The notes: a model not told the origin generated them from the letters alone. Counted from the stretch's first letter, positions 14,831 to 50,845 are shown. The stretch: 64,000 bases of DNA from Clostridia bacterium (GCA_016938455.1 JAFGUQ010000062.1:2477-66476); one strand, 5' to 3'. Made by a program: numbers and translations.

Positions 14831-14831
14831 C

Positions 14832-19886: not shown

Positions 19887-20972
19887 CTATTTGCATAATT
19901 TTCTTATTTCCTGCTCATGAGCAAATAAGGAGCAGCCTCCGTCATGGGGACCACCTACAAATTCCAGCTGGCTGAGCTTTTTGAACAAAGGAGACTGCAA
20001 CGCTTCTATTAATGTCATTGTTTTAAGGTTGCTATCTGAAAAAGGTGAAAAAGGACAGGGTTCTGCTCCGCCATAGGGGTTAATATGGAAAAATCCTCTT
20101 CCTGCCGCCAGGCATCCTCCAGTATATTTTTCATCCCCCGGAAATGCTACAAAAATGATTTCCTTGTATTTTTCAATCAGTGTTATCTGCTTCTGTTCAA
20201 AATAGGTTCTTTCTTTTTCTGTTGGTGCCAGATGATGGCTTCCTTTTGTTATGGGAACATATTCAATGAAAAAAACAAGCCGACAGCCTATCTCACGAAG
20301 TTTATCTATAAAATCCTCATCTGTCACTTCCATATAATTTTCCGTGGTGACTGTGATGGAAACTCCATATAAAATACCTGAGTCTTTTAGCTTTGAAAGA
20401 GTATTCATGATTTTCTGGTAGGTTCCTGACCCTCTTCTTGTCTCTGTTCGTTCACGACTTCCTTCCAGACTGACCACAGGAATCAGATTCCTTTTTTTTC
20501 TGAACAGGTTGATATATGTTTCATCAATCAATGTGCCGTTTGTAAAAATGGGAAACAGGATGTTTTCATGTGCTGAAGCGTTTATGATGATTTCTCTCTG
20601 AAGAAGAGGTTCTCCCCCTGCCAGTAAAAAAAATGAAACTCCGATTCGCCCGGCTTCATCAAAAATAGCCTCCCACTGCTTTGCTGACAAAACTTCTTCT
20701 TTCACAGTTTCTGAACAGATGGCATTTTCCCTGGCATAGCAGCCAGTACAAAACAGATTACATTTTGATGTAATGCTGCCTATTAAAAAAGCAGGAACAT
20801 GAATACCTTCATCTTCATACTTCTTTCTGATTTTATCTGCTTTTTTACAGGCGTTTCCAAATGTAAGAAAAAAAGCCGTTTCTCTTGGATTGATGATTGT
20901 CTTCCTGACAATGTCCTTAATCAACTCATTAATTGCCTTACCCATGTAAGCTGTGACATCACGATTTTCCAT
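19887..20972 (-). CDS. Radical SAM enzyme with C-terminal SPASM/twitch-like Cys cluster
   Basis: CNLFCTGC (Cx3Cx2C) at about residue 70, GGEPLL SAM-binding motif, C-terminal GGCLAAGRGFFHINPYGGAEPCPF...GGCSLF. 63-bp gap to the upstream ABC exporter gene. Confidence 0.7.
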   Translation of the reverse strand: MENRDVTAYMGKAINELIKDIVRKTIINPRETAFFLTFGNACKKADKIRKKYEDEGIHVPAFLIGSITSKCNLFCTGCYARENAICSETVKEEVLSAKQWEAIFDEAGRIGVSFFLLAGGEPLLQREIIINASAHENILFPIFTNGTLIDETYINLFRKKRNLIPVVSLEGSRERTETRRGSGTYQKIMNTLSKLKDSGILYGVSITVTTENYMEVTDEDFIDKLREIGCRLVFFIEYVPITKGSHHLAPTEKERTYFEQKQITLIEKYKEIIFVAFPGDEKYTGGCLAAGRGFFHINPYGGAEPCPFSPFSDSNLKTMTLIEALQSPLFKKLSQLEFVGGPHDGGCSLFAHEQEIRKLCK

Positions 20973-21035
20973 ATGTACCTCTTATCATTAATGATAAGAT
21001 TATATAGTCATTCCAATATTTATTCAAGAACCGTT

Positions 21036-23360
21036 CTATTCTGTTCTAAGTGCTTCCACCGGGTCTTTCTTCGCTGCCATTCTTGAAGGGATCAGACCTG
21101 CGATTAAGGTCAATACCATACTTCCGATTATAAGAAATATGGCATTCGGTAATGTCAGATTCGCCAGGTTTTCTATCTCTGCAAGTCTTGCAATAATCAG
21201 ATTGATCGGAATAATAAGCAGATAAGAAATACCTACACCAATGGTTCCTGCGACAAATCCTACAATCAGCGTTTCTGCATTGAATACTCTTGATACATCT
21301 TTCTTTCTGGCTCCTACGCTTCGTAAAATACCGATTTCCTTAGTTCTTTCAATCACTGATACATAAGTGATGATTCCTATCATGATAGTTGACACTAAAA
21401 GTGATATGGCAGCAAATCCTATCAGAACATAGGTCACTGTATTTAATAATGTACCAATCACACTGGTAATGGTTTCTGCAAGATCGGTAAACACTACCTG
21501 ATCTTCATTTGCCTTTCCTGTGTTATATTCCTCAAGATAGGTCTTTATACTGTCTTTACTGTTAAAATCAACCGGATATATATTAATCCCTGTAGGGGTG
21601 GTATCAGCTCCCAGACTGATCATTTTCACCTGTTTTGCAGCATCATTGGCAAATGGAATATTCAAAACGACATCGTAATCCGCTTCTTTTTGTGCTTTTG
21701 CAATTTCTGACTGTTTCGCATTATCCACCATATATTCAGTCAGTGCAGTTGTATAGGCGATTCCCGGAGACAGATAACTGCTGGCAGCTCCGTCTTTCAA
21801 TCTCAGTATGCCTGTGATGGTAAGATTGAATCCCTTGTCACTGTTATATATGGTTTCATAATCACCTGAACTCGCAGGTATGAACAATCCGTTCTCATCC
21901 TGATGATAAAAATCGTTGTTTGGAATGACTTTCAAAATAGTTTTTCCGATAAAATCAGAAATTTGATAAGTTTCCTGCTGAGTAAAGATTCCAAGTCTCT
22001 GAAAAAGAGCTTCATCTATTCTGTTATATTCATCAACAATCAGTATCACTTCATTTTTATTGACCGGCAAACGGCTGCTTTCTCCTATAAGATCATATAG
22101 AGACAGAATGAAGTCTGTATTCTCCGGCATTTCCTGCCAGTAGTTTCTTGAGGTTCCATACCTGACTACAGACTCTTCTCCTTTAGCAAGAACATTTATG
22201 CTGACTCCTCTTGAATATGAAATGGTATTGACGGTTCCCGGAAGATCATGTTCAAGCTTTGAAACATAGTTCAGATAATCTTCTGACAGCACATTGATAT
22301 GTCTGGTTGTATTCGCACTGCTGTCATATCGGTAAATGGTATCACCGCTCGGATATTTAACAAAAGCAGAAGGTTCTTCATCCATACCGAAACGCTGGCG
22401 GTCTGTAAAATCAATTCGCTGTTCTCCTGTACTGATGGAAATTGGAAAACCGGAAAGCGTTTCTGCCTGCATCTTATCTATATAGCTTGATAATCCTCCT
22501 GACAAGGCTAGCACAAGCGCCACTCCTATAATGCCTATGCTGCCTGCAAGCGAGGTAATAATTGTTCTTCCTTTTTTTGTCAGCAGATTTCTGAAAGATA
22601 AGGCAGTTGCTGTAAATAAAGACATGGAAGTTCTTTTGAACTTTTCTGATTCAGAAGGAATGATTCCATTTGCTCTGACATTCACATTATTATCCTGATG
22701 CAGTTCACCATCAAGAAGATGGATGATACGGCTGCTGTACATATCTGCAGTTTCCTTATTATGCGTTACCATGATCACTAAGCGGGTCTTTGAAATCTCT
22801 TTTAAAATATCCATAATCTGAATACTGGTATGGCTGTCAAGAGAACCGGTTGGTTCATCAGCAAGAATAATATCAGGATTATTCACCAGTGCACGGGCAA
22901 TAGCCACACGTTGCATCTGTCCTCCGGAAAGCTGATTCGGTTTCTTTTTCATCTGATCATCCAGCCCAACTGCTTCAAGTGCTTCTTTTGCTCTCTTTCT
23001 TCTTTCTGCTGTTTTTACTCCTGAAAGTGTCATGGCGATTTCAACATTCTGAAGAACTGTCTGATGAGTAATCAGATTATAGTTTTGAAATACAAATCCA
23101 ATTGATTTATTACGATAAGCATCCCAGTCACTGTCTTTGAAATTTTTTGTTGAAACTCCATTGATGATCAAATCACCTGAATCATATCTGTCTAATCCGC
23201 CAATCAGATTTAAGAGTGTGGTTTTTCCGCATCCGGATGGTCCTAGTATTGAAACGAATTCGCTTTCATTAAATTCAAGTGAAATATTTTTCAAGGCCTC
23301 AACAATGGTAGTTCCTGCTTTATAGGTTTTCCTGATGCTGACAAGTTTTAATTTTGACAT
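21036..23360 (-). CDS. Fused ABC ATPase / FtsX-family permease (MacB-type exporter)
   Basis: N-terminal ABC domain ([18 protein letters not shown]), then a large extracytoplasmic domain and C-terminal FtsX-like four-TM bundle. Confidence 0.8.
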
Positions 23361-25198: not shown

Positions 25199-26428
25199 AT
25201 GAATGTTAGATTCAATGATGTGCGTGACTGGTTTTTCAAGAAACGTTACGGATTATTCATTCACTGGGGGATTTACGCAGTGGATGGATGGCATGAACAG
25301 ATGATCTATCGTGGTAAATTGACCAGAAAAGAATATGTGCCTAAAATGTTTAAGTTCAACCCTGTCGGTTTCAATCCCGATCAATGGATTGACCTGGCTA
25401 TTGAAGCTGGAATGGAGTACTTATGTTTCACAACCAAGCATGTGGACGGTTTCTGTATGTTCAATACAAAATATACTGAGTTTAACATCATGAATACGCC
25501 ATACATGAAAGATATTCTTAAAATGCTGGCAGATGCCTGCCATCGAAGAAACTTTCCTTTGTGTCTTTATTATTCAATATGCGACATGAATCATATCAAT
25601 TATCCGAATCAGGGACGACCATACGAACTACCTGGTCCAGAGCAGGGAGACCAGCCTGATCAGGAAAAATATCTTGAATTTGTCAGAAATCAGGTCATTG
25701 AACTCTGTACCAATTACGGAGAAATACATGGGTTCTGGTGGGATGCCAATATCATCAGTCATAAGGATGAATCTGTTAACAACTTAATCAGATCACTGCA
25801 GCCAAAAGCTGTCATTAATAACAGAGGTTTTGATGAAGGAGATTTTGGAACTCCTGAAAGAGAATATGACTTTTATTCTCACGTAGATTCCGATGTTTCT
25901 TTTAAAACTCCGGTGGAAGCATGTCAGGCTGTGGGAACAGAGAGCTGGGGGTATAGAGTGGATGAGGATTATTATACCAACAGGTATCTTATGGAAAGTA
26001 TCGATAAAATCATGGCAAAAGGGGGTAATTATCTTCTAAATGTCGGTCCTGATCAAAATGGAGAAATTAATAAAAAATCAAGCGATATTTTACTGACCAT
26101 TGGTAATTGGCTAAAAAAAGTAAAGATTTCTCTTTATGAGGTCATTCCTTCTTCCATATTAACGACTAACCGGGATGTTCTGATCACTAAAAAAGAAAAC
26201 AAACTGTATATTCATTTGTTTAAGTCCCCGATAAAATCTTCTGTGTACCTGCCACCTATAAGCACACTTCCAAAAAAGGCAGTTTTACTGAATAATATGA
26301 CTTCTGTCAAAACAAGCATTGATATTACCCCTCATACCTGGAATGATGAAAAGCGAACGTTGCGTTTATGTGATTTACCTGTCAATGAATTTTTAAATGA
26401 GGTAATGGTCATTGAACTTGAGTTTTAA
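25199..26428 (+). CDS. Alpha-L-fucosidase (GH29), no signal peptide
   Basis: GH29 N-terminal signature YGLFIHWGIY and TKHVDGF. Confidence 0.8.
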   Translation: MNVRFNDVRDWFFKKRYGLFIHWGIYAVDGWHEQMIYRGKLTRKEYVPKMFKFNPVGFNPDQWIDLAIEAGMEYLCFTTKHVDGFCMFNTKYTEFNIMNTPYMKDILKMLADACHRRNFPLCLYYSICDMNHINYPNQGRPYELPGPEQGDQPDQEKYLEFVRNQVIELCTNYGEIHGFWWDANIISHKDESVNNLIRSLQPKAVINNRGFDEGDFGTPEREYDFYSHVDSDVSFKTPVEACQAVGTESWGYRVDEDYYTNRYLMESIDKIMAKGGNYLLNVGPDQNGEINKKSSDILLTIGNWLKKVKISLYEVIPSSILTTNRDVLITKKENKLYIHLFKSPIKSSVYLPPISTLPKKAVLLNNMTSVKTSIDITPHTWNDEKRTLRLCDLPVNEFLNEVMVIELEF

Positions 26429-31898: not shown

Positions 31899-32098
31899 TG
31901 GTTCCCTCTTTTTCTGATAGACTCTAACTTTGACTGTTGTGGCATGGCCACCAACCAAATAATATCATACTTTCCTTTTATATACAATATGCTTAAAATA
32001 TCAGACATTAATCACTCAAATTAATATAAAAAGAGATATGCTCTTTTTCATATCTCTTTTATTCTAAAAATTATTTGCCCTTTGTAAATTATTTAATT

Positions 32099-35000
32099 TT
32101 ACGGTATGGTAACCGTTACAGAATGGCAAGGTACAAGAGTACCATCAATTAATATTGCGAAACTTGTATACTGCATACTGTTCTCATCATCTTCAAAGTC
32201 ACTTATTACCATTTCTCCAAGGTTATACTCACTAGATCCTGCCTCTTCACCGTTTTCCTTAAATACTATCCCCTCAAGCGCCATGACTGCTATACCAGAA
32301 GTGGAAAAATTGATACTTTCAGCATTAAAACTTCCTGTAAAATCCTCAAAGCTAAGTATTCCTGTTATAAGTGCTGTTGCATTTTCCTCTTCAACTGTTA
32401 TCGAAACAGTCGATGCTCCGCAAATCCTCATGAATAACACTGTCAAATCACCGGTACTGTTAGTTATCAAAGTAGCATTATCAAGTTTTATTCCTGCCAT
32501 TATTTCAAATGCAACTCCATCAGAATTGATTCTTACATCTGCATCTTTGAATATCCACTCCCCACCGGTTCCTTCATCATTCCCCAGTGCAATTCCTGTA
32601 CTTGTAATTTCTGTTTCCAATGAATCAATGTTGAAAACATTACTGCAGTATACAGTATAGTTTCCTTTTCCGCTTATATTAAGGCTTGCATCAGATCCGT
32701 CGCCAATTAGGTGTATTGAACGTTCAAGTCTCACAGATGGTTCTCCAGTTTTCGTATTGCTGATTGTACAGTTCCCCTGAATATTAATTATCAGATCTTC
32801 TATTGCTTCTGTCGCAACAAGAACTCCGTTAACATTTGAATAATCTCCTGTCAAAGTCAGGTTTTTAAAAGTCACCTCTGTTACATCTGGTTCGATGATA
32901 AGACATACTGTACTACTGTTACCGCTGACAGTCAGACCACTTCCTGTTAAAATCAGGGTGGGAATTTCTCCAACCATTCTATATGAGTATCCTGCGATAC
33001 TTCCAACATTTATATCTTCAGATACATTTTCATATGTAATGAAAACTCCAGTTTCAGGAAGTGGGTCCTCTGTAGAATATGCCTGATAAACTGCTGTGAA
33101 GGTTTTGTTCCATGTCACTGTAGTCTCATCACTCAGCAGGGGAGTCCAGCTGTTAAATATATATTCGTAGCCCGTTCCTCCTTCTCTTATCGGGTTATTG
33201 GGAGGTACAACTTTATCACCATAATGGTAAGTCTGTATAAGTGTATTATCTCCGTTTTCAAACTTCCCTTCACCTGCATCAAAAGTAACAGTGTACTCTT
33301 TCAGCTGGGAACTGTATTGTGCATAGTATGTTTGATTTGAATTAGTTGTTATTCCTGGTTGATAAGAAGGACTCCAGCCTGTAAAGGTATATATCCACAT
33401 TTCTGTTGATTCTTTTTGTGGTATTTCATTAAATTCAGGTGTTTTTCCTCCGTAAACACTCTGAAGAGTTTTTTGAGTGCTTCCATCGGTAAAGTGTCCA
33501 GAATTAGCATAGAAAGTAATTGTTACACTCATAGGTGTCTTCGCATAAGTTGCATATAGTGTTATATTATCATTAAAAACAGCATCACTTAAACTGCTTC
33601 CATATGATGCATCCATCTCAGCAGCCCACCCTGTAAACTCATAATGATACTGGCCATCATCAAACTTCACAGGTATTTCGTTGAAATTTACTTCAGTCCC
33701 ATATGAAGCAGTAATTGCTTTCACTGTGTCACCATCTGCAAATATTCCACCGTTTGTATTAAATGTAATCGTTTTATCTACTCCAACAAGAGTAAACTTC
33801 ACTACTGCATTTATATATTCAGAAGGAAATCCTTCTTCATTGAGTATACTTCCAAACTGATATGGTAACATCAGTCCGTAATTAATTAATTGATAATCAT
33901 AGTTATTAATATTTGATGTCTTTTTCAAATCTTTAAGCATATCTTCAGTGATTACTTCTCCGTAATGTCCGCTCAAGTATACTTTTTTATCACAGCCGTC
34001 AAAGCGGACAGTGTAAACAATTGGCTCAGCCTTAAATACAGGTTTAAACGTAAGATTATATTGATAATCTGTATAAAAATCACTCATATATAATTTGATA
34101 TGTGAACCGTTTACCATCTCTGTAGATTGCCAGTAATCAACAGTATACATGTTTTCATTATCTCTGTAGGTCAATGTTGGAAGATATAGGAAATTATATT
34201 CATGGTATGTTCCTTTGTATTCCTTTATATTCGTCCCATCCGAAAAACTATGATCTCCTGCATCAAAAACTGTTGTCACTTCAAGATACTGCTTGTCATA
34301 TACAGGAGAAAAAACTTCATCAGCATACACATTTCCAAATGCTGTTCCACTATCTGACACCCAGCCTTTAAACTGATATCTATAATAGTCTTCTTCCCCT
34401 TCCAATGTGTCATAAACTTTTGGCATTTCAGGTATTTCTCCTCTCACTATTTTTTGCTCTGAGAGGAATTTTCCTTCTATATCCTTGAATATGACTTTCA
34501 CATATGGCTGAAATATGGCATAGTATCTTTCATAGTTATTCATTGAAGCATGCAATGATGGCCACCATCCTGCAAATTTCTGGTATTCAGTATCAAAGAT
34601 ACTCATATCAGGTGCTTCAGGAACAGTTCCCTTCTTTACATAATATGATGTTATATTAGTAGTATCATCTATGTAAAAACCTGTTAAGCACATGTCGGCA
34701 GCCTGTTTGTACGTAGCGGTATAGCTGAAGTCAGTTTGAACTGAACGTAATGGCGGACTCCAGCTGTCAAACTCCCATCCTGGTTCAGTTACCATATCTT
34801 CTGCAGATGGTGTCATTGGAATGTCTCCTGAAAGAGTTTGAAGGGTCTTTATTTCACCATATTGATATGTGCCTGTCTCTTCATTATATACAGTTCCATA
34901 AAAAGTAATGTTCTTATAGTTCATTTCGTAATCCAGATGATAATCTGTATCTTTGTAAATTGCTTCAAAAGACTCTTTCCAGGGTTTTGCCCAATCTTTA

Positions 35001-37699
35001 ATTCTATACTTTGAGTATATCAGCAACTCTTCATAAGACTCCTCAGGTACCGGGACAGGAATCTGTCCTATGTAATACTCTTTTTCTTCTAATACACTTC
35101 CATCAGGTTTGTGAAATATTGCTTTGAACTTCTGTGTACTGTCATCAACCTTATATTTCATATATGTAAAATTAATATTCTTGGTTATCAGCTCCAGATT
35201 CCTGGAAAAAAGGGAACAACCTTTTGTATATTGTACGACAACAGTAAAATCAAGACGATCCGGGGCTTTATCCTTAATAGTTATCATTCCGGTATCCTTG
35301 TCCATGGATATATAATCTAAATCAGTCTTATTTCCTTTGCCTGTTTTATCTTGAATTAAGAAAAAAGCATACTCATCACTGAAAGCTGCCGGCTTAATCT
35401 CGATAGTAACACCTGTTGATTTCCCTTCAATGTTAATATATTTCAAATTCAGCAGTTTATCATCTCCACTGTTTTTAATATTATATGACATAGTATTGAA
35501 TGTGATTGAATTTTCGTTCTCCTCAAATTCAGAAGCAAATTCAAGTGCTCCAATGGTTAATATCGGAAATTTCATTTCAGCAATAGTAACACTATCCTCA
35601 TATCCGAATATATTCCAGGTAAATTCAAGTACTACATATACTCCTGTCTCACTTTTCAGACCACCTGCAAGTAACATACTGGAGTCTGAATCAATTATGT
35701 TATACTCAAACCTCAAGTATCCTGTGATTTCTTCATAAACACCTACTTCAGCAGAAAATCCGAAATTCAACCATTCATTCATATGAAACACACTGAAATT
35801 TACACCTGCGCAAAGCCCGGCACGAATGCCTACTTGCCCTTTTAAAACTGCTGTGAAATGAGCTTCTGACTTCAACCTCTCACTATAATTTGTCATGGAT
35901 GTCTTTGTTAATTCGCTTCTTGAATAGTCAACATTATACATTCCTATTTTTCTGACTTCATTGCTTTTGAAGTTCAAATCCAAACCTGCTCGAAAGCCAA
36001 CACTGACATTAAAATCCAGTGTGAACTGAATAGATAATATTTCATATATCGTTACAGTTTTATTTCCTAATGGTTTTGAAAAAATCTTAACATAATCCAA
36101 ATCATCTCCAAAGAAATTCTCATTATTGAGGTTTTCAACAATCACTGCGGTTTTATCATCACTTTGCAAATCAATCAGATTCTGAATTTCATCTGTAATA
36201 TTCACCTGCCCACTCCCGGTTTTTATTACAATATTGAATGATACTTCGAAATTATTATTCAAGTGAATTCCATTATCAACATATAACTTGGATTCCTCCA
36301 TTTTCATCCAGCCATATGCAGTTGTAACGATATTTTCTCTCATGGTTAAATTAAAAACAAGATTAATGTTCTCATCCAGTTTTATGCTAATATCTCCTGT
36401 AGTGAATTCAATTCTGCCAAAAAACCCGTTATCATTGTTTTGAATGTCTTTTGTTGTCCCAATAGAGATGTCGAATCTAACATTTTTTAGCAAGTCTATC
36501 AAAGTATCAACACTCATCTGTTCAAACTGATATTGCTTTTCAGTATCCATATTCCTGATCGTTTTCAATAAAGTCGGACTTTGTTTAATGCTGTTTGCAA
36601 TTGTTTTACATAAATAGTCATACCCTTTACTATCATTAAGAGATGATTGAAAACTTTGTTCTAGTGCATTAGACATTACTTGATCTTCTTCAAAATAGAT
36701 TGCATCCCCATTGTAAAATAATTCATATTCTGAATATATATCATTAAAATCAGGAGCAATCAAGTCAAGGGTGGTACCCTCTTCATCTTTGATGACTTTG
36801 AACACCTTGTAATACTGATAGTCCTCAACAGTTTCATTTACACTGCCTAAGCTGACAATATCCCCTTCTAGATAAGCTATATCATCTTCAATTAATTTTG
36901 CGCGATAAATGGTTTTACCAGCATCTATTCCTTGATTTACTTCTCCAGCGACTTCAAAGGTTGATATATTAGAGCTTAATAGAAGTTTTGTTTCTGCTTT
37001 CACAACGATATTCTTTTCATTTTCTCTATATACAGAAAAAGTATAATTTGTTATGTTTGAACCGGAAACATATTCTTCCCCTGCTTTTACAAAGTATATT
37101 TTACTATCATCTTTTATCTTTATAGAGTAAGTAAAACCTTCTGTAAAGCCATCTTTTGAGTATAACAAATAATAATCACCCTGAGGTTTCACAGAAAGCG
37201 TTTTAAAATCTTCAACGCCTATATTTGAAAAGCTGATGTAATCCGTTAAATTTTCATCAGTCAGCACAATATCTGAATGGACTGTAAAAGATATGTCAAT
37301 ATCGCAATCTTTAATATATTCAGAATTACGTGCTTCCATATCTGGTTTATACCATCCAGCATAAAGCGTAGTATCTTCTGTAAATATGTCACTTTCCTTG
37401 TAAGCATTAACTGGTGCCTCTTCATAAAACCACCCTGTAAAAATATATCCGGATCGATAAGGTGAGACAATATTACTGATTTTTTCTCCTTTTTGTAGTG
37501 TCTGGTTCTCAACTAAGCTTCCACCTGTACTATCAAACATAATGATAATCGGCACATCTGACGAAGATAAGCGTTCTCTTGAATTAAAAAAAAGAACACT
37601 TCCTATGATAAATACTATCAACATTATTACAATAAAAACATATATGACAGTTTTTCCTTTTTTACCCATGCTATTTGTGTTGTCATTTTTTTTGAACAT
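32099..37699 (-). CDS. Giant (1866 aa) membrane-anchored surface protein with multiple Listeria-Bacteroides (Flg_new, GY-F-GW) repeats
   Basis: N-terminal signal anchor. At least 8 repeat units with the GYxFxGW / YAxW motif (FTGWFYE, QFKGWVSD, FAGWWPS, FDSWSPP, EFTGWAAE, TFTGWSPS, IFNSWTP ...). No LPXTG motif. Asn/Ser-rich beta-strand composition. Confidence 0.7.
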   Translation of the reverse strand: MFKKNDNTNSMGKKGKTVIYVFIVIMLIVFIIGSVLFFNSRERLSSSDVPIIIMFDSTGGSLVENQTLQKGEKISNIVSPYRSGYIFTGWFYEEAPVNAYKESDIFTEDTTLYAGWYKPDMEARNSEYIKDCDIDISFTVHSDIVLTDENLTDYISFSNIGVEDFKTLSVKPQGDYYLLYSKDGFTEGFTYSIKIKDDSKIYFVKAGEEYVSGSNITNYTFSVYRENEKNIVVKAETKLLLSSNISTFEVAGEVNQGIDAGKTIYRAKLIEDDIAYLEGDIVSLGSVNETVEDYQYYKVFKVIKDEEGTTLDLIAPDFNDIYSEYELFYNGDAIYFEEDQVMSNALEQSFQSSLNDSKGYDYLCKTIANSIKQSPTLLKTIRNMDTEKQYQFEQMSVDTLIDLLKNVRFDISIGTTKDIQNNDNGFFGRIEFTTGDISIKLDENINLVFNLTMRENIVTTAYGWMKMEESKLYVDNGIHLNNNFEVSFNIVIKTGSGQVNITDEIQNLIDLQSDDKTAVIVENLNNENFFGDDLDYVKIFSKPLGNKTVTIYEILSIQFTLDFNVSVGFRAGLDLNFKSNEVRKIGMYNVDYSRSELTKTSMTNYSERLKSEAHFTAVLKGQVGIRAGLCAGVNFSVFHMNEWLNFGFSAEVGVYEEITGYLRFEYNIIDSDSSMLLAGGLKSETGVYVVLEFTWNIFGYEDSVTIAEMKFPILTIGALEFASEFEENENSITFNTMSYNIKNSGDDKLLNLKYINIEGKSTGVTIEIKPAAFSDEYAFFLIQDKTGKGNKTDLDYISMDKDTGMITIKDKAPDRLDFTVVVQYTKGCSLFSRNLELITKNINFTYMKYKVDDSTQKFKAIFHKPDGSVLEEKEYYIGQIPVPVPEESYEELLIYSKYRIKDWAKPWKESFEAIYKDTDYHLDYEMNYKNITFYGTVYNEETGTYQYGEIKTLQTLSGDIPMTPSAEDMVTEPGWEFDSWSPPLRSVQTDFSYTATYKQAADMCLTGFYIDDTTNITSYYVKKGTVPEAPDMSIFDTEYQKFAGWWPSLHASMNNYERYYAIFQPYVKVIFKDIEGKFLSEQKIVRGEIPEMPKVYDTLEGEEDYYRYQFKGWVSDSGTAFGNVYADEVFSPVYDKQYLEVTTVFDAGDHSFSDGTNIKEYKGTYHEYNFLYLPTLTYRDNENMYTVDYWQSTEMVNGSHIKLYMSDFYTDYQYNLTFKPVFKAEPIVYTVRFDGCDKKVYLSGHYGEVITEDMLKDLKKTSNINNYDYQLINYGLMLPYQFGSILNEEGFPSEYINAVVKFTLVGVDKTITFNTNGGIFADGDTVKAITASYGTEVNFNEIPVKFDDGQYHYEFTGWAAEMDASYGSSLSDAVFNDNITLYATYAKTPMSVTITFYANSGHFTDGSTQKTLQSVYGGKTPEFNEIPQKESTEMWIYTFTGWSPSYQPGITTNSNQTYYAQYSSQLKEYTVTFDAGEGKFENGDNTLIQTYHYGDKVVPPNNPIREGGTGYEYIFNSWTPLLSDETTVTWNKTFTAVYQAYSTEDPLPETGVFITYENVSEDINVGSIAGYSYRMVGEIPTLILTGSGLTVSGNSSTVCLIIEPDVTEVTFKNLTLTGDYSNVNGVLVATEAIEDLIINIQGNCTISNTKTGEPSVRLERSIHLIGDGSDASLNISGKGNYTVYCSNVFNIDSLETEITSTGIALGNDEGTGGEWIFKDADVRINSDGVAFEIMAGIKLDNATLITNSTGDLTVLFMRICGASTVSITVEEENATALITGILSFEDFTGSFNAESINFSTSGIAVMALEGIVFKENGEEAGSSEYNLGEMVISDFEDDENSMQYTSFAILIDGTLVPCHSVTVTIP

Positions 37700-37870
37700 T
37701 TCTATACCCCCGTTTTACATCATATAGTTTTTTTCTTCTGCCAAAACCACTCTTTTGTACCAATCATCATTATTTTAAATTTTCAATATGTTGAAAACCC
37801 TGTTATTTGAAAAATAAGCGGATAAAAAGCACCCACAATATTCATAATAGGTAAAAATTTTGTTTTTGAA

Positions 37871-37907
37871 TAGTGACTTTTTTAGGCTTAAAAGTCACTT
37901 TTTTTTA
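37871..37907. terminator. Hairpin (AGTGACTTTT...AAAAGTCACT) with flanking T/A tracts
   Basis: 10-bp inverted repeat immediately 3' of the regulator gene. The T-run is better on the plus strand, so function is uncertain. Confidence 0.3.
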
Positions 37908-39086
37908 TTAAAATATATATTTTTGAAGCTCTTCTCTTCCAGATATAAACAGTTTACTGTAAATTTCAAGTATTATATTTTTAAGTCTTCCTACCGAGAT
38001 ATGATACTGCTTGGCTATCTTTGCATAAGGTACTTTACGAGCAACCAGCAAAGCTATATGATATTCCCGCAATGATAATATAGTTGTTATGTTATCTTTC
38101 GTAAAATGATTATGAAATGAAACCCAATTTTTCCATGTACATTCCCATTGTTCGATTACATCATCATAATATTCTGGATATTCCTGTTCTAAACATTTTT
38201 CAACATACCCACCAAGAGCAGTTACCACTTCAGAAAAAGGAGTAATAAAGCCAAATGGTAAAGCAAGTTTCATTGCTTTTAACAGCCACTTCATAGTTTC
38301 ATTTTCCTGATCAAGAAAATGACATGCAACCGCACACATAATATGTAGATAAATTTGCGGTAGGGTGATTCCTTGTTCTTCTTTATAAAGAGTTAATGCA
38401 GTTTGTGCTACAGCCAGCATACCTTCAATATTACCAACACAATGAAAATATTTTGCCCGTAAATAGAGAGCATCAGGGATTGCCTGTTCTGGAAGTGAGC
38501 TAAAATCCCCTTCTTTCAGCCATTTTTGAACATTATTTGGAGCAATTACACTAACATATGCTGTTGCAAGAGCAAGTTCTGCCATGCTTGATAAGTAATT
38601 TCCTTTTTCCAATAAGATCTTTTTTTTAAGATAAGATTCTATCTCAACATATGCATTATATTCTCCTAAACTAATCGCAGCAGCAATGGCGATAGGGCAT
38701 GCGCGAAGTCTTGCTGTGTCATCTTGTGAAGTTTCAGAAAAACATTGTAAAGTTCTTTTAAAATTTCCTCGAAGATAAGATAGTTCCCCTTCATACTGAA
38801 GCTGTAACCTGCGATCAGTGATTATCTCTAATATTTCATCAGGATTATTGTTAGGCATCGGAATAGTTGTTGCCTCAATAATTTGAATAAAATCAGATAA
38901 TATTAAGTTCTGTGTTGCTTTTTTCTCTTTTCGTAAATCATCAGGTTTTTTAGCTTCTATCGGAATCATCCATGATTTACCAAATTTCTTGGCTCCATAT
39001 ATTCTATTGTCAGCAACAAGCCGTTGAACTTGTCTGATAGAAACATTCCATTTTTCAGAAATGTCTTTAACAGATAAATATTGCAT
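37908..39086 (-). CDS. Transcriptional regulator with N-terminal excisionase/MerR-type HTH and C-terminal LuxR/GerE HTH
   Basis: N-terminus LSVKDISEKWNVSIRQVQRLV...GKSWMIP (HTH_17-like). C-terminus LSLREYHIALLVARKVPYAKIAKQYHISVGRLKNI (LuxR-type). Helical TPR-like middle. Confidence 0.55.
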   Translation of the reverse strand: MQYLSVKDISEKWNVSIRQVQRLVADNRIYGAKKFGKSWMIPIEAKKPDDLRKEKKATQNLILSDFIQIIEATTIPMPNNNPDEILEIITDRRLQLQYEGELSYLRGNFKRTLQCFSETSQDDTARLRACPIAIAAAISLGEYNAYVEIESYLKKKILLEKGNYLSSMAELALATAYVSVIAPNNVQKWLKEGDFSSLPEQAIPDALYLRAKYFHCVGNIEGMLAVAQTALTLYKEEQGITLPQIYLHIMCAVACHFLDQENETMKWLLKAMKLALPFGFITPFSEVVTALGGYVEKCLEQEYPEYYDDVIEQWECTWKNWVSFHNHFTKDNITTILSLREYHIALLVARKVPYAKIAKQYHISVGRLKNIILEIYSKLFISGREELQKYIF

Positions 39087-39604
39087 ACAAAAAACCTCTT
39101 ACTTAAATTGTTTCACTTGTATTATAGTCGCTTGAGCGACATTTTACAAATGTTACTATGCTTATTAGCTTATATTATCAATCAAATTTAACTGCAGAAT
39201 ATATGTGAAAGGAAACTGCGCTGAGGAAAAAAGAATTAGCAGGTTTTATCAAAATGTTTACCGAATTAAAATTTACTTATAACAAGATTTTTTAGTTAAT
39301 GTGTCAATATCGCAGATACCATCATAAAAAAGTCCGTAGCCTTTTTTAAAGCAAGAGATATGAATATAGCGCAATACAGCCTCATAAATAGTCAAAATAC
39401 TGAATAATAAGGATGTAAAAAATGATTAAAATACATTGGCTCTGTTGTAAAACGCCATATATATAGATATAATTAGTTTATCAAGACTATATAAAAGCTT
39501 TAATAATCAAGGCAAAATGCATTATAAAAGAAAAAGTGATTAGAATTATTAGTTTTAAAGGCTAACATATCATAGACATCAGAAACACATGTTTTAAGGA
39601 GAAG

Positions 39605-40015
39605 ATGATGTCAAAATTTCAAGTAGTAAATGACAAGAAATGCATTCATAATGATTTTGAAATATTTCTGTTTAAAGAAAAGTATGAAATATTTTTAGCA
39701 AAGGATACAAAAAATACAGAAACTATTACTCACACGAAAGTTCTGGTGAAAGCAACTAGATATGCCCTTGAAAAAAAACTGATTAATGAAAAAATGTATG
39801 GTAGCGGATATCTAAATGTAACTGAAAGCAATGACAGACAACTTGTAGCAAGTAGTTTAATTGGTTTGGATGATAAAAAAGCAATGAGAGTATATTATTT
39901 GTTAAAGTGGTTTCAATACAGGCAATTGAGCTGTTTAACCGGTAGATATATTTTTTCAAATGTTAATAGTTGCTTGAAAATCAATAAAGGAGCTTATTAT
40001 GTTAGGGAAGAATGA
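39605..40015 (+). CDS. Hypothetical protein (136 aa), overlaps the start of the histidine kinase gene
   Basis: ORF with RBS AAGGAGAAG; no recognisable motif. 17-nt overlap with the downstream kinase start. Confidence 0.35.
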   Translation: MMSKFQVVNDKKCIHNDFEIFLFKEKYEIFLAKDTKNTETITHTKVLVKATRYALEKKLINEKMYGSGYLNVTESNDRQLVASSLIGLDDKKAMRVYYLLKWFQYRQLSCLTGRYIFSNVNSCLKINKGAYYVREE

Positions 40016-41372
40016 TAAAAAAAGTGTTGAACATGTAAAAATAAAAGCCATAAGAATCACACTCATTTATCTTGTGGTTGGGTGCCTATGGATTATATTT
40101 ACCGATAATATTGTTGAAAAAATATTTACCAATCCCAGCGATATAATCATGATTAATATCGCTAAAGGATTATTTTATGTTATAACAACAGCAGTTTTAA
40201 TATTCTTTTTAATATATTCGTCTTTTATAAAGTTAAAACAGAATGAAGAGCGGTTGAGACGCTCTCAAGAAATATCAAAAGCGGGTACTTGGGAGCTTGA
40301 GATGGAAAGTAGTATGATTTGGGCTTCTGATCAAACCTTGAATCTTTTTGGTTTAAAAACAAAAACTAATATATTAAATATCAATGATGTTGAAAATATG
40401 ATTCATGAAGATGACAGGCAGATAGCTCATGATGCGATTATTAATTTAATTGAGGATAATAAAAAGTATGATATTGAATATCGTATTCAACCTTTTGGTG
40501 CAGGAGATTTTCGTTATGTGCGATCTATAGCAGAAAAGCAACTTGATGATAAAGGTAATATAGTCAAAATTGTTGGAGTAATCCTGGATATGACTGAAAA
40601 AAGAAAGCTGGAACAAGAAAAAGCTTTATTACAAGAACAAGTATGGAATCATCAAAAGCTGGAGTCAATTGGTACCCTTGCAAGTGGTGTAGCACATGAA
40701 ATAAACAATCCTATTAATGGTATTTTAAACTACGGGCAGATTATTCTTGACTCAACAGAAACTGATTCCCAGATAAACAAATATGCCGGAGAAATTATCT
40801 ATGAAACGAATCGTGTTTCAGAAATTGTTAAAAATCTTTTAAACTTCTCTAAGCAGTCTGGTAAGCAGCACAGTTATGCACAAATTGATGATATCATTGG
40901 GAAAACACTGTCTTTAGTAAGTACAATTTTCAGACATGATGATATTAATCTTAGTGTAGACATAAAAGAGAACATCTCAAATTTGAAATGCAGAAGTCAA
41001 CAGATTCAGCAGGTTCTCATGAACTTATTGACAAATTCCAGAGATGCGCTTAATGAAAAATATCCAGGTTATCATGAAAATAAAAAAATCAACTTGGAAT
41101 GTCATGAGTTTTCAATGGATAACAAAAAATGGATATCTCTTTCAATTGAAGATTCAGGGACAGGTATTCCCGAAGAAATAAAACATCGCATTTTTGATCC
41201 TTTTTTTACGACAAAAGACAAAGAAAAAGGTACTGGACTAGGTTTATCTATTAGTTACGGTATTATAAAAGAGCATCATGGTGAAATCCAAGTTGATTCA
41301 AAAGAAGGAGAGTACACCAAGTTCACCTTACTTCTGCCTTGTGAGAACGGATGGGATATAAATGATAAATGA
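39999..41372 (+). CDS. Orphan sensor histidine kinase (2 TM, PAS, HisKA, HATPase_c)
   Basis: H-box SGVAHEINNP, N-box LLTNSRDA, G-boxes DSGTGIP and GTGLGLS. No response regulator adjacent. Confidence 0.8.
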   Translation: MLGKNDKKSVEHVKIKAIRITLIYLVVGCLWIIFTDNIVEKIFTNPSDIIMINIAKGLFYVITTAVLIFFLIYSSFIKLKQNEERLRRSQEISKAGTWELEMESSMIWASDQTLNLFGLKTKTNILNINDVENMIHEDDRQIAHDAIINLIEDNKKYDIEYRIQPFGAGDFRYVRSIAEKQLDDKGNIVKIVGVILDMTEKRKLEQEKALLQEQVWNHQKLESIGTLASGVAHEINNPINGILNYGQIILDSTETDSQINKYAGEIIYETNRVSEIVKNLLNFSKQSGKQHSYAQIDDIIGKTLSLVSTIFRHDDINLSVDIKENISNLKCRSQQIQQVLMNLLTNSRDALNEKYPGYHENKKINLECHEFSMDNKKWISLSIEDSGTGIPEEIKHRIFDPFFTTKDKEKGTGLGLSISYGIIKEHHGEIQVDSKEGEYTKFTLLLPCENGWDINDK

Positions 41373-44510: not shown

Positions 44511-45344
44511 CTATTTCTTTATGATATCAATGATTCTGTTTAATCCCTCTAATGAAAAATATTCTATCACTATTTTTCCCTTTTTACTGCTTCTAGTGAT
44601 TTTTACTCTGGTTCCAAGCTTTTTGGCAAGAACATTTTCTACATAAGCATATTCCTCTTCATTTAGAACTGGTTGCTTTTCTTTCTTCTTTTTAGGTGCC
44701 GCATTAGCTATTTTTTCAATTTCCCTTACATTCAACCCGTTCTCTATCGCTTTCACTGCTACTTCAAGACGTAACTTTTTATCTTCTATACCAAGTAAAG
44801 CTCTTCCATGACCTTCAGACAGCTGTTCTTTTTCAATAAATTCTTGAAGCGTGCTGTCTAAATTTAATAATCTCAGTTTATTAGTTATCGCTACTCTGCT
44901 TTTTCCAACGCTCAGTGATATTTCTTCCTGAGTCATGTTGTATTCGTCCTGAAGTCTTTTAAAAGCTTTTGCTTCTTCAATTGCATTTAAATCTTTTCTC
45001 TGAATGTTCTCTATTAAAGCAAATTCCAGAATTTGTTTATCGGTAACCTCTCTGACAACAATCGGTACCACCTTTAATTTCAGTTTTTTTGCTGCTCTCC
45101 ATCGTCTTTCACCAGCAATAATCGTATAGCCATTGTCCACTTTTCTGACAATCAATGGTTGAATGATGCCATTTGATGCAATTGATTGAGCAAGATTATT
45201 TAATTCTTCTTCATTAAATAACTTTCTAGGCTGATTTACATCTCTGTTGATTAAATTTATGTCAACTTCCGTTACTGTTCTTTTTTCTTCTTCAGTTGCG
45301 CTTTCGAATAAAGCTTCCAGGCCTTTTCCTAATCCTTTTTTCAT
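44511..45344 (-). CDS. spo0J: ParB/Spo0J chromosome partitioning protein
   Basis: ParB box GERRWRAA, HTH, adjacent to parA and a parS site. Confidence 0.9.
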   Translation of the reverse strand: MKKGLGKGLEALFESATEEEKRTVTEVDINLINRDVNQPRKLFNEEELNNLAQSIASNGIIQPLIVRKVDNGYTIIAGERRWRAAKKLKLKVVPIVVREVTDKQILEFALIENIQRKDLNAIEEAKAFKRLQDEYNMTQEEISLSVGKSRVAITNKLRLLNLDSTLQEFIEKEQLSEGHGRALLGIEDKKLRLEVAVKAIENGLNVREIEKIANAAPKKKKEKQPVLNEEEYAYVENVLAKKLGTRVKITRSSKKGKIVIEYFSLEGLNRIIDIIKK

Positions 45345-45357
45345 TTTTCCCCCTATA

Positions 45358-46119
45358 TTATGTGCACTCTATAACTTCTTTAGCCAGTTCAAGATAACTG
45401 ATTGCTCCTTTTGAGCTTGGATCATATTTTAAAACAGGAAGTCCATAACTGGGTGCTTCACTCAATCTGACATTTCTGGGAATGATTGTTCCATATACTT
45501 TATTTCCAAAATGCTTTCTGACTTCCTCTGCTACTTCAAGAGACAGGTTTGTTCTTTGATCAAACATAGTTAAAACAACGCCTTCTACTTCTAAACTGGG
45601 ATTCAAGTGCTTTTTTACCAGTTTAACTGTCTGCATTAGTTGTGATAATCCTTCAAGTGCATAATATTCGCATTGAATCGGGACAAGGATAGTATCAGCA
45701 GCTGTTAAAGAGTTCAATGTTAATAATCCTAAAGAAGGAGGACAGTCGATAATAATATAATCAAAAACGTCCCTGATTTCCTTTAAAGCATTTTTTAACC
45801 TGTTTTCTCTCATCATCTGACTTACTAATTCAATTTCCGCACCTGCCAGATTGATATTTGATGGACATATTTTTAAAGCATCAATCATTGTGTCAATAAT
45901 CGCTTCTTTAATGTCTAAATCATTAATAATTACTTCGTAAGTGGATTTTGTGACTTTATATTTATCAATACCTAATCCACTACTCGAATTTCCCTGTGGA
46001 TCGTTATCAATAAGTAATGTTCTCTTATTTAATTGAGCTAAACTGGCACTGAGATTGATAGCGGTAGTCGTTTTACCAACTCCCCCTTTTTGATTTGCTA
46101 TTGCGATGACTTTTGCCAT
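45358..46119 (-). CDS. soj: ParA/Soj chromosome partitioning ATPase
   Basis: Deviant Walker A KGGVGKTT, 253 aa, immediately upstream of parB. Confidence 0.9.
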   Translation of the reverse strand: MAKVIAIANQKGGVGKTTTAINLSASLAQLNKRTLLIDNDPQGNSSSGLGIDKYKVTKSTYEVIINDLDIKEAIIDTMIDALKICPSNINLAGAEIELVSQMMRENRLKNALKEIRDVFDYIIIDCPPSLGLLTLNSLTAADTILVPIQCEYYALEGLSQLMQTVKLVKKHLNPSLEVEGVVLTMFDQRTNLSLEVAEEVRKHFGNKVYGTIIPRNVRLSEAPSYGLPVLKYDPSSKGAISYLELAKEVIECT

Positions 46120-46173
46120 TTACTTCCCCTTACTCTTTTTTTTTAGTATAACATAAAAAAAATTCACGTGATA

Positions 46174-46189
46174 TGTTTCACGTGAAACT
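46174..46189. promoter_or_regulatory. parS centromere-like site (with an upstream degenerate half-site at 46161..46172)
   Basis: TGTTTCACGTGAAACT matches the parS consensus at 15/16. The nearby AATTCACGTGAT shares the CACGTG core. Confidence 0.8.
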
Positions 46190-46202
46190 TTTTTATCTCT
46201 AT

Positions 46203-48128
<1,926 letters not shown>

Positions 48129-48395
48129 TTAAACTCCACTTCTGTTTCTTTTTTCCAATGTTTTTGATGAAATAGATGTAATATATACTTTTACTTTACC
48201 CTGTTCTTCAGTAACAATGAATGTTTTAGGCATTTCGTCACTGACAGAAATAATTGATTTCTCTTTTTCTTTATCATTTAGATATTCTCTTGTTAACTTT
48301 GAAATTGTAGTGTTTTCAATATCAAAAATTCCAATTATATTACTTTCTCTAATCAAATATTCTCCACCAATATGAAGAAACATTATACTCTCCAT
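48129..48395 (-). CDS. DUF370 / RemB-like protein (YaaB)
   Basis: 88 aa, MFLHIGGEYLIRESNIIGIFDIE pattern, in the conserved recF-yaaB-gyrB position. Confidence 0.7.
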   Translation of the reverse strand: MESIMFLHIGGEYLIRESNIIGIFDIENTTISKLTREYLNDKEKEKSIISVSDEMPKTFIVTEEQGKVKVYITSISSKTLEKRNRSGV

Positions 48396-48446
48396 TTCTT
48401 AAACATTATATATTATTATATAACATTTACATACTTTTTTCAATTT

Positions 48447-49529
48447 TTATCTCTGTTCAACGATTCCTTGACTTACATGATAGAAAGTGGTTTTATCTAA
48501 AAATTGACTGTAATTTTTTTTCTCTGTACTAGTAATAAATGTCTGTCTTGTCAATATGCTTTCAGTAAGAAATTTTCTTCTGCTGAGATCAAGTTCACTC
48601 ATGACATCATCTAGCAGCAAAACCGGAAAATATCCTGTTTTTTCCTTGATAATCTCTATTTCTGATAACTTAAGTGCTAAAACTGAAGTTCTCTGCTGTC
48701 CTTGTGATCCAAAAAATTTCACATCTTTATCATTGATAAAAATTGTGAAATCATCTCTATGCGGTCCATATAATGTCATTTTATTTTTTATTTCATTTTT
48801 TATATTATTATGAATGTTTTTCTTTATTTCTTCTCTTGTAAATCCTAGAGAAGAAATATATTTAATTTCTCCAGTTTCATTGTTATTAGAAAGCTTTTTT
48901 ATAAAAATATTAAAGTGTTTTTCTGTTTCTTCTAAAAATTTTACTCTTTCTTTGATGATTTCATACGATATATCTTCAAGTTTATTGTTATAAACATCTA
49001 ACAGATCAGTCAATTCCTTATGCTGGTACTTTTTTAATACTGCATTTTTCTGTTTTATTATTCTGTTCAGTTTTTGAAGTTTATAAAAATAAGTAGAACT
49101 TGTCTGACTGATCAGAATATCAATGAATCTTCTTCTTTCTGAAGGGCCCTGTTTGATAATTTGTAAATCCTCAGGTGAAAAAATGACAGTATTCAATACA
49201 CCTATCATTTCTCCAAGCTTACTTACTAATAACCCGTTAATCTTTATCTGTCTTTTTTCACCTTTTATATACTTTATTTCCAAAGAAAAAGGAATATCAT
49301 CCTTTATCCCTTTGATTTTTATTAAATATCCGTTTTCACCTTCTTTAATCAACTGATTTTCTTTAATTGCCCGGTGAGATCTTCCGGTTGAAGCCAGATA
49401 AACAGATTCTATTAAATTGGTCTTTCCTTGAGCATTCTTACCATAGATAAGATTGATATCTTTTTGAGGATATATAAGCAAATCATGATAATTTCTGAAA
49501 TTTTTCAGCTGAATTTCCGTAATAAACAA
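48447..49529 (-). CDS. recF: DNA replication/repair protein RecF
   Basis: Walker A GKNAQGKTN, SMC-like signature and Walker B LLLDDV, 360 aa. Confidence 0.85.
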   Translation of the reverse strand: MFITEIQLKNFRNYHDLLIYPQKDINLIYGKNAQGKTNLIESVYLASTGRSHRAIKENQLIKEGENGYLIKIKGIKDDIPFSLEIKYIKGEKRQIKINGLLVSKLGEMIGVLNTVIFSPEDLQIIKQGPSERRRFIDILISQTSSTYFYKLQKLNRIIKQKNAVLKKYQHKELTDLLDVYNNKLEDISYEIIKERVKFLEETEKHFNIFIKKLSNNNETGEIKYISSLGFTREEIKKNIHNNIKNEIKNKMTLYGPHRDDFTIFINDKDVKFFGSQGQQRTSVLALKLSEIEIIKEKTGYFPVLLLDDVMSELDLSRRKFLTESILTRQTFITSTEKKNYSQFLDKTTFYHVSQGIVEQR

Positions 49530-49538
49530 ACTTTTTCC

Positions 49539-49745
49539 TCATTCAATGATGAATTTAGCATTATTTAATTCGATCACGTCGTTCTTATAGAGTTTTCTTC
49601 CTCTTCTCTTTTCTAATTCACCATTAACAAGAATATCTTCAGCTAAAATGATTTCTTTAGCATGAGAACCATTTTCTGCAATTCCCATGTATTTCAGAAA
49701 CTGATCTAATTTAATATATTCTGTTGTGATTTTCACTTTTTCCAT
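49539..49745 (-). CDS. yaaA: S4-domain RNA-binding protein YaaA
   Basis: 68 aa, S4-like, in the conserved dnaN-yaaA-recF position. Confidence 0.7.
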   Translation of the reverse strand: MEKVKITTEYIKLDQFLKYMGIAENGSHAKEIILAEDILVNGELEKRRGRKLYKNDVIELNNAKFIIE

Positions 49746-50845
49746 TAATTTGTCCTTACAGGTAATATAACATAAGAAAATTCATCGCTGTTTATAGGCG
49801 AAATCACACAAGGTCCTATGCTTCCGGAGAATGATATTTTAATTTTCTCATCTTCTATGTTTTTCAAAGCATCCATAATAAATTTCGGATTAAAAGCAAT
49901 TGAAATATCTTTTCCTTCTTTACTTATCTTGACAGTTTCTTCTACTCTTCCAATATCTGTTACTGAATATACTTTTGCATATTTATCGTCAATTTCAAAT
50001 TTTACAGGTGTTCTTTTATCTTCTGTAATAATTAAATTAGCTCTGTCTGCTGCATCAAGTAAAGCTTTTGTTTCAACCTCAATTTCTGTTTCATAGCTGT
50101 CCGGATAAATACTCTTATAATTTAAATAATCTCCCTGTAAAAGTTTGGTAATTAATTTACAGTTTCCAAAGTCAAATAAAATCTGATTTTTCCCATAATG
50201 AATACTGACTTCTTTATCATCTTCTTTTAATAATCTTGCTACTTCATTTAAAGCTTTTCCAGGTATGACAACAGTCACTCCTTCTTTAATTCCTAATATA
50301 TATTCTTTTCTGAATGACATTCTATATCCATCAATAGATACCATATAAATACAATTATCAGCTGATTCAAGTAAACATCCTGTTAAAACAGGCATTTTTT
50401 CATCAATACTTACACTGAAAACAACTTGTCTGATCATATTTCTTAAAATTTCCTGTTTTAATGTAATAGCATTATTTTCATTAACTGATGGAATTTCAGG
50501 AAAACCCTGTGGATTTAATCCAATTAAATCAATATTTGAATTACTGCATCTGATATTAACTTTATATGAATCATCACAAGAGATTTCAATATTTCCATCT
50601 GGAAACTTTCTTACTATTTCAGAAAAATATCTTGAGGTCAGAACAACAGATCCTTCTTCTTCAATAACACCGGCAACTGTATATTCAATTCCCATTTCCA
50701 TATCATTTCCACGTAAAATTATTTTATTATCTTTTGCTGTAATAAGTATTCCTTCTAAAACAGCTAAAATGGACTTATTTGATACTGCTCTCTGTGTAGA
50801 AGAAACAGCTTCGTTTAAATCTTTTTTCATGCAGAATATTTTCAT
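49745..50845 (-). CDS. dnaN: DNA polymerase III beta sliding clamp
   Basis: 366 aa, three-domain clamp pattern, immediately downstream of dnaA. Confidence 0.9.
   Translation of the reverse strand: MKIFCMKKDLNEAVSSTQRAVSNKSILAVLEGILITAKDNKIILRGNDMEMGIEYTVAGVIEEEGSVVLTSRYFSEIVRKFPDGNIEISCDDSYKVNIRCSNSNIDLIGLNPQGFPEIPSVNENNAITLKQEILRNMIRQVVFSVSIDEKMPVLTGCLLESADNCIYMVSIDGYRMSFRKEYILGIKEGVTVVIPGKALNEVARLLKEDDKEVSIHYGKNQILFDFGNCKLITKLLQGDYLNYKSIYPDSYETEIEVETKALLDAADRANLIITEDKRTPVKFEIDDKYAKVYSVTDIGRVEETVKISKEGKDISIAFNPKFIMDALKNIEDEKIKISFSGSIGPCVISPINSDEFSYVILPVRTN

Follow-up and report, generated by a model that had tools for sequence, protein, structure and literature searches.

The window, a stretch of 64,000 nucleotides from a Clostridia bacterium, carries on its minus strand a giant-protein gene (positions 32099-37699) that runs from an ATG start through 1866 codons plus a stop with no interruption. 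Its product corresponds to the NCBI entry MBN2851741.1, annotated as 'InlB B-repeat-containing protein [Clostridia bacterium]', and is identical to it except that NCBI places the start at M26. Some 20 homologues, 1777-2283 aa in length, align with it at 43-58% identity and coverages of 78-100%, mostly 96-100%, and these alignments take in the Lys-rich N-terminus and the complete hydrophobic segment. Because of these homologue N-termini, and of a GGGGG Shine-Dalgarno sequence located 8 nt 5' of the ATG at 37699, the M1 start is preferred over the M26 start. The uninterrupted reading frame together with the full-length homologues indicates that the gene is intact; a pseudogene, the outcome that would have undone the original prediction, or an artefactual ORF is ruled out by this full-length conservation.

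Past the stop codon, at a distance of 39 nt, lies a terminator-like hairpin with a 12-bp stem (32029-32060, minus strand). On the 5' side, an AT-rich region of 208 bp (37700-37907, minus strand) contains the Shine-Dalgarno sequence and a weak -35/-10 match at 37797-37769. This gap sits inside a 500-bp block of ~28% GC, in agreement with the AT-rich promoter region of ~200 bp proposed earlier. Because it has its own Shine-Dalgarno sequence and its own terminator-like hairpin, the giant gene looks monocistronic. A search against Rfam gave no riboswitch (for example, of the c-di-GMP type) in the leader and no RNA family in the interval 31900-39700, where just two sub-threshold chance matches were obtained. 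The GntR/FCD gene on the downstream side is the first of an oxidoreductase operon with no relation to the giant gene.

Upstream of the AT-rich region, a gene for a regulator of 392 aa (37908-39086, minus strand) encodes an N-terminal HTH_17 domain, a TPR_MalT-like middle part, and a C-terminal HTH. Orthologues of this regulator (43-67% identity) are found upstream of the giant gene in 8/8 distinct homologue loci examined, including the locus of a relative only 25% identical and anchored by SLH domains, while all other neighbors differ. The proposal of a dedicated-looking regulator is strongly supported by this arrangement, and we infer that the regulator controls the giant gene. Moreover, both genes are separated in 6/8 of the homologue loci by a conserved Cys-rich ORF of 105 aa; the same ORF was looked for in the window and is absent. 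According to the related-locus search (6 loci), the carrier genomes are MAGs of Oscillospiraceae, Christensenellaceae, or unclassified Clostridia. These lineages are generally known as monoderm bacteria, with no outer membrane.

The giant protein starts with a Lys-rich segment (aa 1-17) whose N-terminal sequence is MFKKNDNTNSMGKKGK, followed by 21 hydrophobic residues (aa 18-38; 37586-37648, minus strand) that form a putative signal-anchor transmembrane helix, read off the sequence. Neither an AXA site nor a lipobox is present at this N-terminus. These features are consistent with an uncleaved N-in signal anchor, with residues 1-17 on the cytoplasmic side, which is how the N-terminus had already been described. 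Wall-binding modules are missing, as described for the SLH and choline-binding types, being no match obtained for SLH (PF00395), CWB2 (PF04122), or choline-binding (PF01473) families in the giant protein (Pfam) or in 18 close homologues.

The statement that the protein has no LPXTG motif is literally incorrect, but it holds functionally. An LPETG pentapeptide occurs at aa 1547-1551 (33047-33061, minus strand), at the junction between the stalk and the tip, where it precedes a folded domain of 315 residues; the protein ends in ...CHSVTVTIP, with no hydrophobic segment or basic tail. Moreover, the 18 close homologues do not keep the pentapeptide, their residues at this site being T-L-E-E-T-G, I-G-E-T-G, L-D-A-T-G, or similar. 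Judged from this alignment, LPETG represents a chance variation on the linker L-x-E-T-G, which is conserved, and a sortase sorting signal at this site is ruled out since it is internal, unconserved, and deprived of the sorting tail.

The profile searches support the original prediction that Flg_new repeats build up a giant surface protein. The Pfam family Flg_new (PF09479) matches three stretches in the whole protein with 60.4 bits (cutoff of 27, E 1.8e-16), the NCBIfam model TIGR02543 is just above its threshold (22.2 versus 20.95), and PF09479 is matched in 19/19 family members. No other Pfam family is detected in the giant protein. A CBM21 domain at aa ~1150-1230 was considered from matches in homologues only, with 14-16 bits versus a cutoff of 28.9, and the assignment was dropped. 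When repeat 1 of 19 family members was used to start a repeat profile and the search was iterated until it converged, nine repeats were delineated, at aa 54-106, 861-920, 930-994, 1008-1059, 1069-1130, 1142-1199, 1310-1375, 1393-1458, and 1470-1534, and the family profile matches the InlB B-repeat structures (PDB codes: 2y5p and 1m9s). The first copy of this Listeria-Bacteroides or InlB B-repeat unit (aa 53-117; 37349-37543, minus strand) includes the best Pfam stretch (aa 53-114). The eight further Flg_new-like repeats defined by the family profile make up the putative stalk (aa 861-1534; 33098-35119, minus strand), with residues 1200-1309 falling outside the repeats. The earlier count of at least eight GYxFxGW copies is then correct at the profile level, whereas the strict motif occurs just once and a relaxed form, [YFW]xFx[GSDN]W, six times. 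On the other hand, the label 'GW-type' was mistaken: the units are of the InlB B-repeat/Flg_new type and not SH3-like GW wall-binding modules, the two being Listeria modules with no relation to each other, and the label refers only to the G-W dipeptide of Flg_new. The GW-domain HMM gave no Pfam match at E<=1 in the giant protein or at E<=0.1 in 19 family members.

Between the first repeat and the stalk lies a region for which the original prediction could assign no domain. Three distant proteins (P0022, P0025, and P0030) share with the giant protein just the transmembrane helix, one Flg_new unit, and aa ~118-745, with 22-25% identity, their C-terminal parts being different; it is this pattern that sets the boundaries of a 630-residue module. 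A profile built from six sequences was run exhaustively with HMMER and, counting cluster representatives at 50% identity, retrieved the module in 441 of them at E<=1e-3, 286 at E<=1e-10, and 84 at E<=1e-30, and nearly all these representatives are 1500-3500 aa long. Separately, a word-indexed homology search with the central-domain profile returned just two fragments. The module is left uncovered by Pfam families in the giant protein, its 18 close homologues, and 18 diverse members of the family alike, and there is no PDB sequence match to it, being the InlB B-repeats the most that the central and whole-family profiles reach. From these comparisons, the central region is a discrete, conserved, and widespread module that is uncurated and has neither a Pfam model nor a structural homologue.

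An AlphaFold2 model of aa 118-860, obtained from a 24-sequence MSA (pLDDT 76.6, with the five models going from 60 to 77, and pTM 0.58), predicts with moderate confidence a succession of β-sandwiches, a five-helix segment, a meander of long hairpins, and an Ig-like domain. The predicted β-sandwich domains (aa 126-338; 36686-37324, minus strand; pLDDT mostly 80-92) would be cadherin-like or S-layer-protein-like, according to weak Foldseek matches to cadherin EC repeats and to the SbsC/Sap S-layer domains, these latter with a probability of ~0.2. They are followed by the five-helix segment (aa 343-405, residues 226-288 of the model; 36485-36673, minus strand) and by the meander of very long amphipathic β-hairpins (aa 408-718; 35546-36478, minus strand), which contains the GIRAGLCAGVNF segment pointed out in the original prediction. 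The Ig-like β-sandwich (aa 729-847; 35159-35515, minus strand), whose strands lie at 612-730 of the model with a pLDDT of ~88-90, is located between the module and the repeats and is conserved only in the close family.

The hairpin region has an unusual predicted fold. Its modeled strands are extraordinarily long (24-40 residues, with the longest reaching 37-40), and in the comparison with the PDB by Foldseek, no significant fold match was obtained for it. Every long strand follows a strict alternation of hydrophobic and polar faces, the hydrophobic one extending for 24-30 residues per strand. In the original prediction, this region was described as rich in Asn, Ser, and Gly with alternating hydrophobic residues; the alternation is real and strong, but the Asn and Gly enrichment is only mild (9.3% N and 8.0% G in aa 408-718). 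Aligning 171 members shows I/L/V/F kept on the hydrophobic face and K/E/T/S/D/N on a polar face that is almost free to vary (entropy of ~3 bits). The exception is a sharply conserved cluster of residues, comprising G621, G624, R626, G628, S636, G647, E651, G653, Y655, G660, G679, G680, E684, G686, and Y688. Since the hydrophobic face is constant and the polar face is highly variable, the hairpin domain is most likely soluble and elongated (~10 nm), folded as a barrel or a flattened sandwich around a hydrophobic core, although the closure of this barrel and the face that points inward are aspects that we infer indirectly from the model.

The C-terminal domain (aa 1552-1866; 32102-33046, minus strand) is predicted as a right-handed parallel β-helix, which would act as a distal carbohydrate-binding tip. 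The AlphaFold2 model of aa 1545-1866 is all-β and very confident (pLDDT 94.7, pTM 0.91), and corresponds to a right-handed three-faced parallel β-helix that can be superposed on Cthe_2159 from Clostridium thermocellum (PDB code: 4phb; PF14262). The C-terminal region had been left without an assignment, which no longer applies to its fold, Cthe_2159-like in the model, but still applies to its sequence: PF14262 is not matched in the giant protein (E<=1) or in 19 family members (E<=0.1). The PDB sequence search with the C-terminal domain gave no match either. The tip is thus predicted to share the β-helix fold of Cthe_2159 with 13% sequence identity, their kinship being at the level of the fold only, and in the protein reported here the helix caps a giant anchored polypeptide. 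The literature presents Cthe_2159 as a lyase-like protein that binds polysaccharides and depends on Ca (PMC8746771). The modeled tip most likely binds a polysaccharide. Other β-helix adhesin tips are the Caldicellulosiruptor tapirins (PDB codes: 6n2c and 6n2b), the binding region of the L. reuteri SRRP (PDB code: 5nxk), and PfbA from S. pneumoniae (PDB code: 4mr0), with structural scores against the tip lower than that of Cthe_2159. However, these proteins have other anchors of their own (LPXTG in SRRP and PfbA) and lack both the Flg_new stalk and the central module.

A comparison of the family members indicates how the polypeptide would be oriented. Among 171 proteins with the central module, a hydrophobic segment is present at the N-terminus of most of the complete ones, a C-terminal LPXTG is found in 0/171, and the module is always within the N-terminal third of the protein. 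In many members, such as P0120, P0112, and the L011 protein, a cleavable signal peptide plus three SLH domains take the place of the transmembrane helix, and CWB2 is found in 1/18 sampled members of the family. The L011 protein, from an Oscillospiraceae MAG, is a version anchored by SLH with 25% identity that is encoded behind the same regulator cassette. Because relatives swap their anchors (SLH, CWB2) at this end, and because the module always stays in the N-terminal third, the N-terminus would be the cell-proximal end and the β-helix the outermost part. The N-terminal membrane anchor is then the obvious candidate for the tether, and the retention of the protein, a mechanism that was considered unclear in the original prediction, would be explained without a sortase. 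In this respect, the giant protein resembles the SLH- and CWB2-anchored giant proteins of Clostridia, given that distant members of the central-module family bear these domains at the transmembrane position. However, it has neither of them and would be tethered to the membrane, in contrast to the secondary cell-wall polymer used by those proteins.

Taken as a whole, the giant protein is probably, with somewhat better than even confidence, a surface protein of the fibrillar adhesin-like type, anchored by its N-terminus, in a monoderm and gut-type Clostridia bacterium. The operational definition of a fibrillar adhesin comprises an anchor, stalk repeats, and an adhesive domain, and all three are found in this one polypeptide as the transmembrane anchor, the nine repeats, and the β-solenoid tip, the last as a predicted fold. 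Among the domains catalogued for such proteins (PMC9210967), Flg_new counts as a stalk and the Cthe_2159-like solenoids count as adhesive. What had been called an accessory adhesin without a named ligand can be kept as a probable accessory adhesin-like protein. The layout of anchor, repeat stalk, and terminal domain of adhesive type is shared with the fibrillar adhesins with Flg_new stalks (Monzon and Bateman 2022, PMC9210967), and the repeats match the InlB B-repeat (PDB code: 2y5p). Nonetheless, the giant protein differs from them in being anchored by an N-terminal uncleaved transmembrane helix instead of a C-terminal LPXTG, in having a 630-residue uncurated module between the anchor and the stalk, and in that its repeats are mostly too diverged for Pfam, which detects 3/9.

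Other explanations for this architecture lead to different functions for its parts. For the distal domain, the protein could be a cell-bound enzyme that degrades polysaccharides, in which the β-helix is a catalytic lyase or glycosidase and the stalk holds it off the cell. The fold itself would be in agreement with this scenario, being common to many enzymes such as lyases, tailspike depolymerases, and epimerases; nevertheless, we consider it unlikely. A structural role in the envelope is rather improbable as well, whether as an S-layer-associated or lattice-forming component or as a mediator of cell-cell aggregation rather than a ligand-specific adhesin. In its favor, there are family members with anchors of the S-layer type (SLH, CWB2), the N-terminal β-sandwiches are weakly similar to the S-layer proteins SbsC and Sap, and the window encodes a fusion of a glycosyltransferase with a polysaccharide pyruvyl transferase, a chemistry required for SLH anchoring. 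However, the giant protein itself is devoid of SLH and CWB2, and the S-layer matches found by Foldseek have the low probability given above (~0.2). Moreover, a dedicated regulator within a two- or three-gene cassette surrounded by variable neighbors gives the gene an accessory look and not a constitutive one, and a distal β-helix is what binding or enzymatic tips usually have.

A different set of alternatives concerns the long hairpins. A speculative reading, which we regard as quite improbable, is that aa 408-718 form a closed OMP-like β-barrel with strands of ~10 nm in bacteria that are free of an outer membrane, acting as a conduit or rod that spans the wall and displays a passenger of 1100 residues (a monoderm counterpart of the inverse autotransporters) or as an inserter into foreign membranes. 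If this were true, the closed barrel and its Gly/Arg/Glu/Tyr cluster would constitute a new fold family found in over 400 clusters of giant surface proteins. That the hairpins form a true membrane-type β-barrel, either OMP-like or pore-forming, is very unlikely. In this case, the order of anchor, barrel, repeat passenger, and tip would be like that of an inverse autotransporter, or the barrel would serve for membrane insertion. Against it, the carrier MAGs (Oscillospiraceae, Christensenellaceae, and 'Clostridia') belong to groups generally known as monoderm, the hydrophobic face of 24-30 residues per strand is far above what a bilayer needs, the polar face varies as a solvent-exposed surface does, and a helical membrane anchor is already present in the giant protein. 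The likeness to the inverse autotransporters (intimin/invasin, type Ve secretion) concerns the layout alone, with no sequence relationship, and from them the giant protein differs in its much longer strands, a hydrophobic face that is too extended, a polar face that is unconstrained, and hosts without an outer membrane. The resemblance of the hairpin domain to OMPs is, for these reasons, best read as geometric, and the domain most likely serves as a rigid base close to the cell.

For the fibrillar adhesin-like protein favored here, a sequence of roles along the chain can be proposed. The Lys-rich N-terminus and the 21-residue helix would be inserted by Sec and stay uncleaved, which would generate an N-in/C-out tether in the cytoplasmic membrane. 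The next ~800 residues, comprising one Flg_new unit, the 630-residue module (β-sandwiches, helical bundle, and hairpin rod of ~10 nm), and the Ig-like domain, would form a rigid cell-proximal base that takes the chain across the wall or above it, a role suggested because the module constantly adjoins whichever anchor a family member uses. The eight further Flg_new repeats would be the stalk, in accordance with the published usage of this domain in fibrillar adhesins, and the distal β-helix would be the working end, which may bind a polysaccharide on plant fiber, mucus, or another cell. Finally, the cassette regulator, with its HTH_17-TPR-HTH architecture, would switch the giant gene on.

These results do not overturn the current understanding of this kind of protein. 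A giant fibrillar surface protein with Flg_new repeats is a known kind, for which a generic annotation is already in place, and the protein described here is recognizable as a surface fiber. What is new is the orientation provided by the N-terminal anchor and its swapping among relatives, the large family of an uncurated module with an unusual predicted long-hairpin fold, and the conserved regulator cassette. Few products encoded by gut and rumen Clostridia are as large, or as poorly understood, as the giant Flg_new proteins, which are annotated just as 'InlB B-repeat-containing', and for one of them the present analysis yields a full list of parts together with their orientation. Moreover, the cassette formed by the regulator, the small Cys-rich protein when present, and the giant gene offers a handle on the conditions under which the giant protein would be expressed, and the central module clearly stands out as a candidate both for a new domain family and for structural work.

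The protein deposited for the 1866-aa giant surface protein gene (32099-37699, minus strand) in NCBI, MBN2851741.1, has 1841 aa and begins at M26, within the hydrophobic helix. Compared with this start, the ATG at 37699 adds an N-terminal segment (37625-37699, minus strand) that yields a complete anchor, and it is backed by a GGGGG Shine-Dalgarno sequence and by the N-termini of the homologues. The NCBI start is probably too short. Farther along the protein, an internal LPETG pentapeptide (aa 1547-1551; 33047-33061, minus strand) is located precisely where the Flg_new repeat stalk meets the C-terminal β-helix; it carries no sorting tail, and a search for its conservation among the homologues found none.

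Inside the repeat array, a strongly conserved stretch is observed at aa ~1140-1309 (33773-34282, minus strand), with Y1185, D1188, Y1189, W1190, S1192, and T1193 being invariant. Its second half is not recognized as Flg_new, and in the homologues, the CBM_21 matches to this stretch are below threshold (14-16 bits, with a cutoff of 28.9). This stretch may be an inserted sugar-binding sandwich.

A comparison of the homologue loci shows that in six of the eight distinct ones, the regulator gene is separated from the giant gene by an ORF for a conserved Cys-rich protein of 105 aa (L001, 7620-7937; L003, 7616-7930; L004, 7583-7900; also L006, L008, and L011), the ORF being missing from the window, L009, and L010. 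This protein, with the Cys pattern C-x2-C ... CGGCGW ... C-x-C, looks cytoplasmic and matches no Pfam family. Moreover, at L001, a second giant surface protein gene of 2651 aa with Big_2, Flg_new, and MBG_2 domains (13865-21697, minus strand) is convergent to the homologue P0004, and giant adhesin-like genes may cluster in genomes of this kind.

The window also contains the chromosomal replication-origin region (44511-59079), with parB (44511-45344), gyrB (46203-48122), recF (48447-49529), dnaN (49745-50845), and dnaA (51072-52403) on the minus strand and yidC (53486-54466), mnmE (55162-56511), and mnmG (56513-58390) on the plus strand. The dnaA gene lies ~13 kb from the giant gene, in the same orientation. 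Within 39000-39600, the local GC skew turns from negative to positive at ~39.3 kb, at the divergent intergenic region; this sign change probably corresponds to a coding-strand switch rather than to the origin, which lies near dnaA, at ~52.4-53.5 kb.

Divergent from the regulator, an ORF of 136 aa that matches no Pfam family shares 17 nt with the beginning of a gene for a PAS-HisKA-HATPase histidine kinase (both 39605-41372, plus strand); no response regulator is seen adjoining the kinase, the next gene being of the TetR family (41739). Polysaccharide pyruvyl transferase chemistry allows wall polymers to bind SLH domains. A protein of 751 aa in which GT4 glycosyltransferase domains are fused to a CsaB-like polysaccharide pyruvyl transferase (PF04230; 60957-63212, minus strand) is noteworthy in view of the SLH anchors carried by relatives of the giant protein, even if the giant protein in the window has none. 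Finally, the genes for a GH78 α-L-rhamnosidase (12260-14830, minus strand) and a GH29 α-L-fucosidase (25199-26428, plus strand) indicate a lifestyle of degrading plant or host glycans, which is consistent with a polysaccharide-directed giant surface protein.
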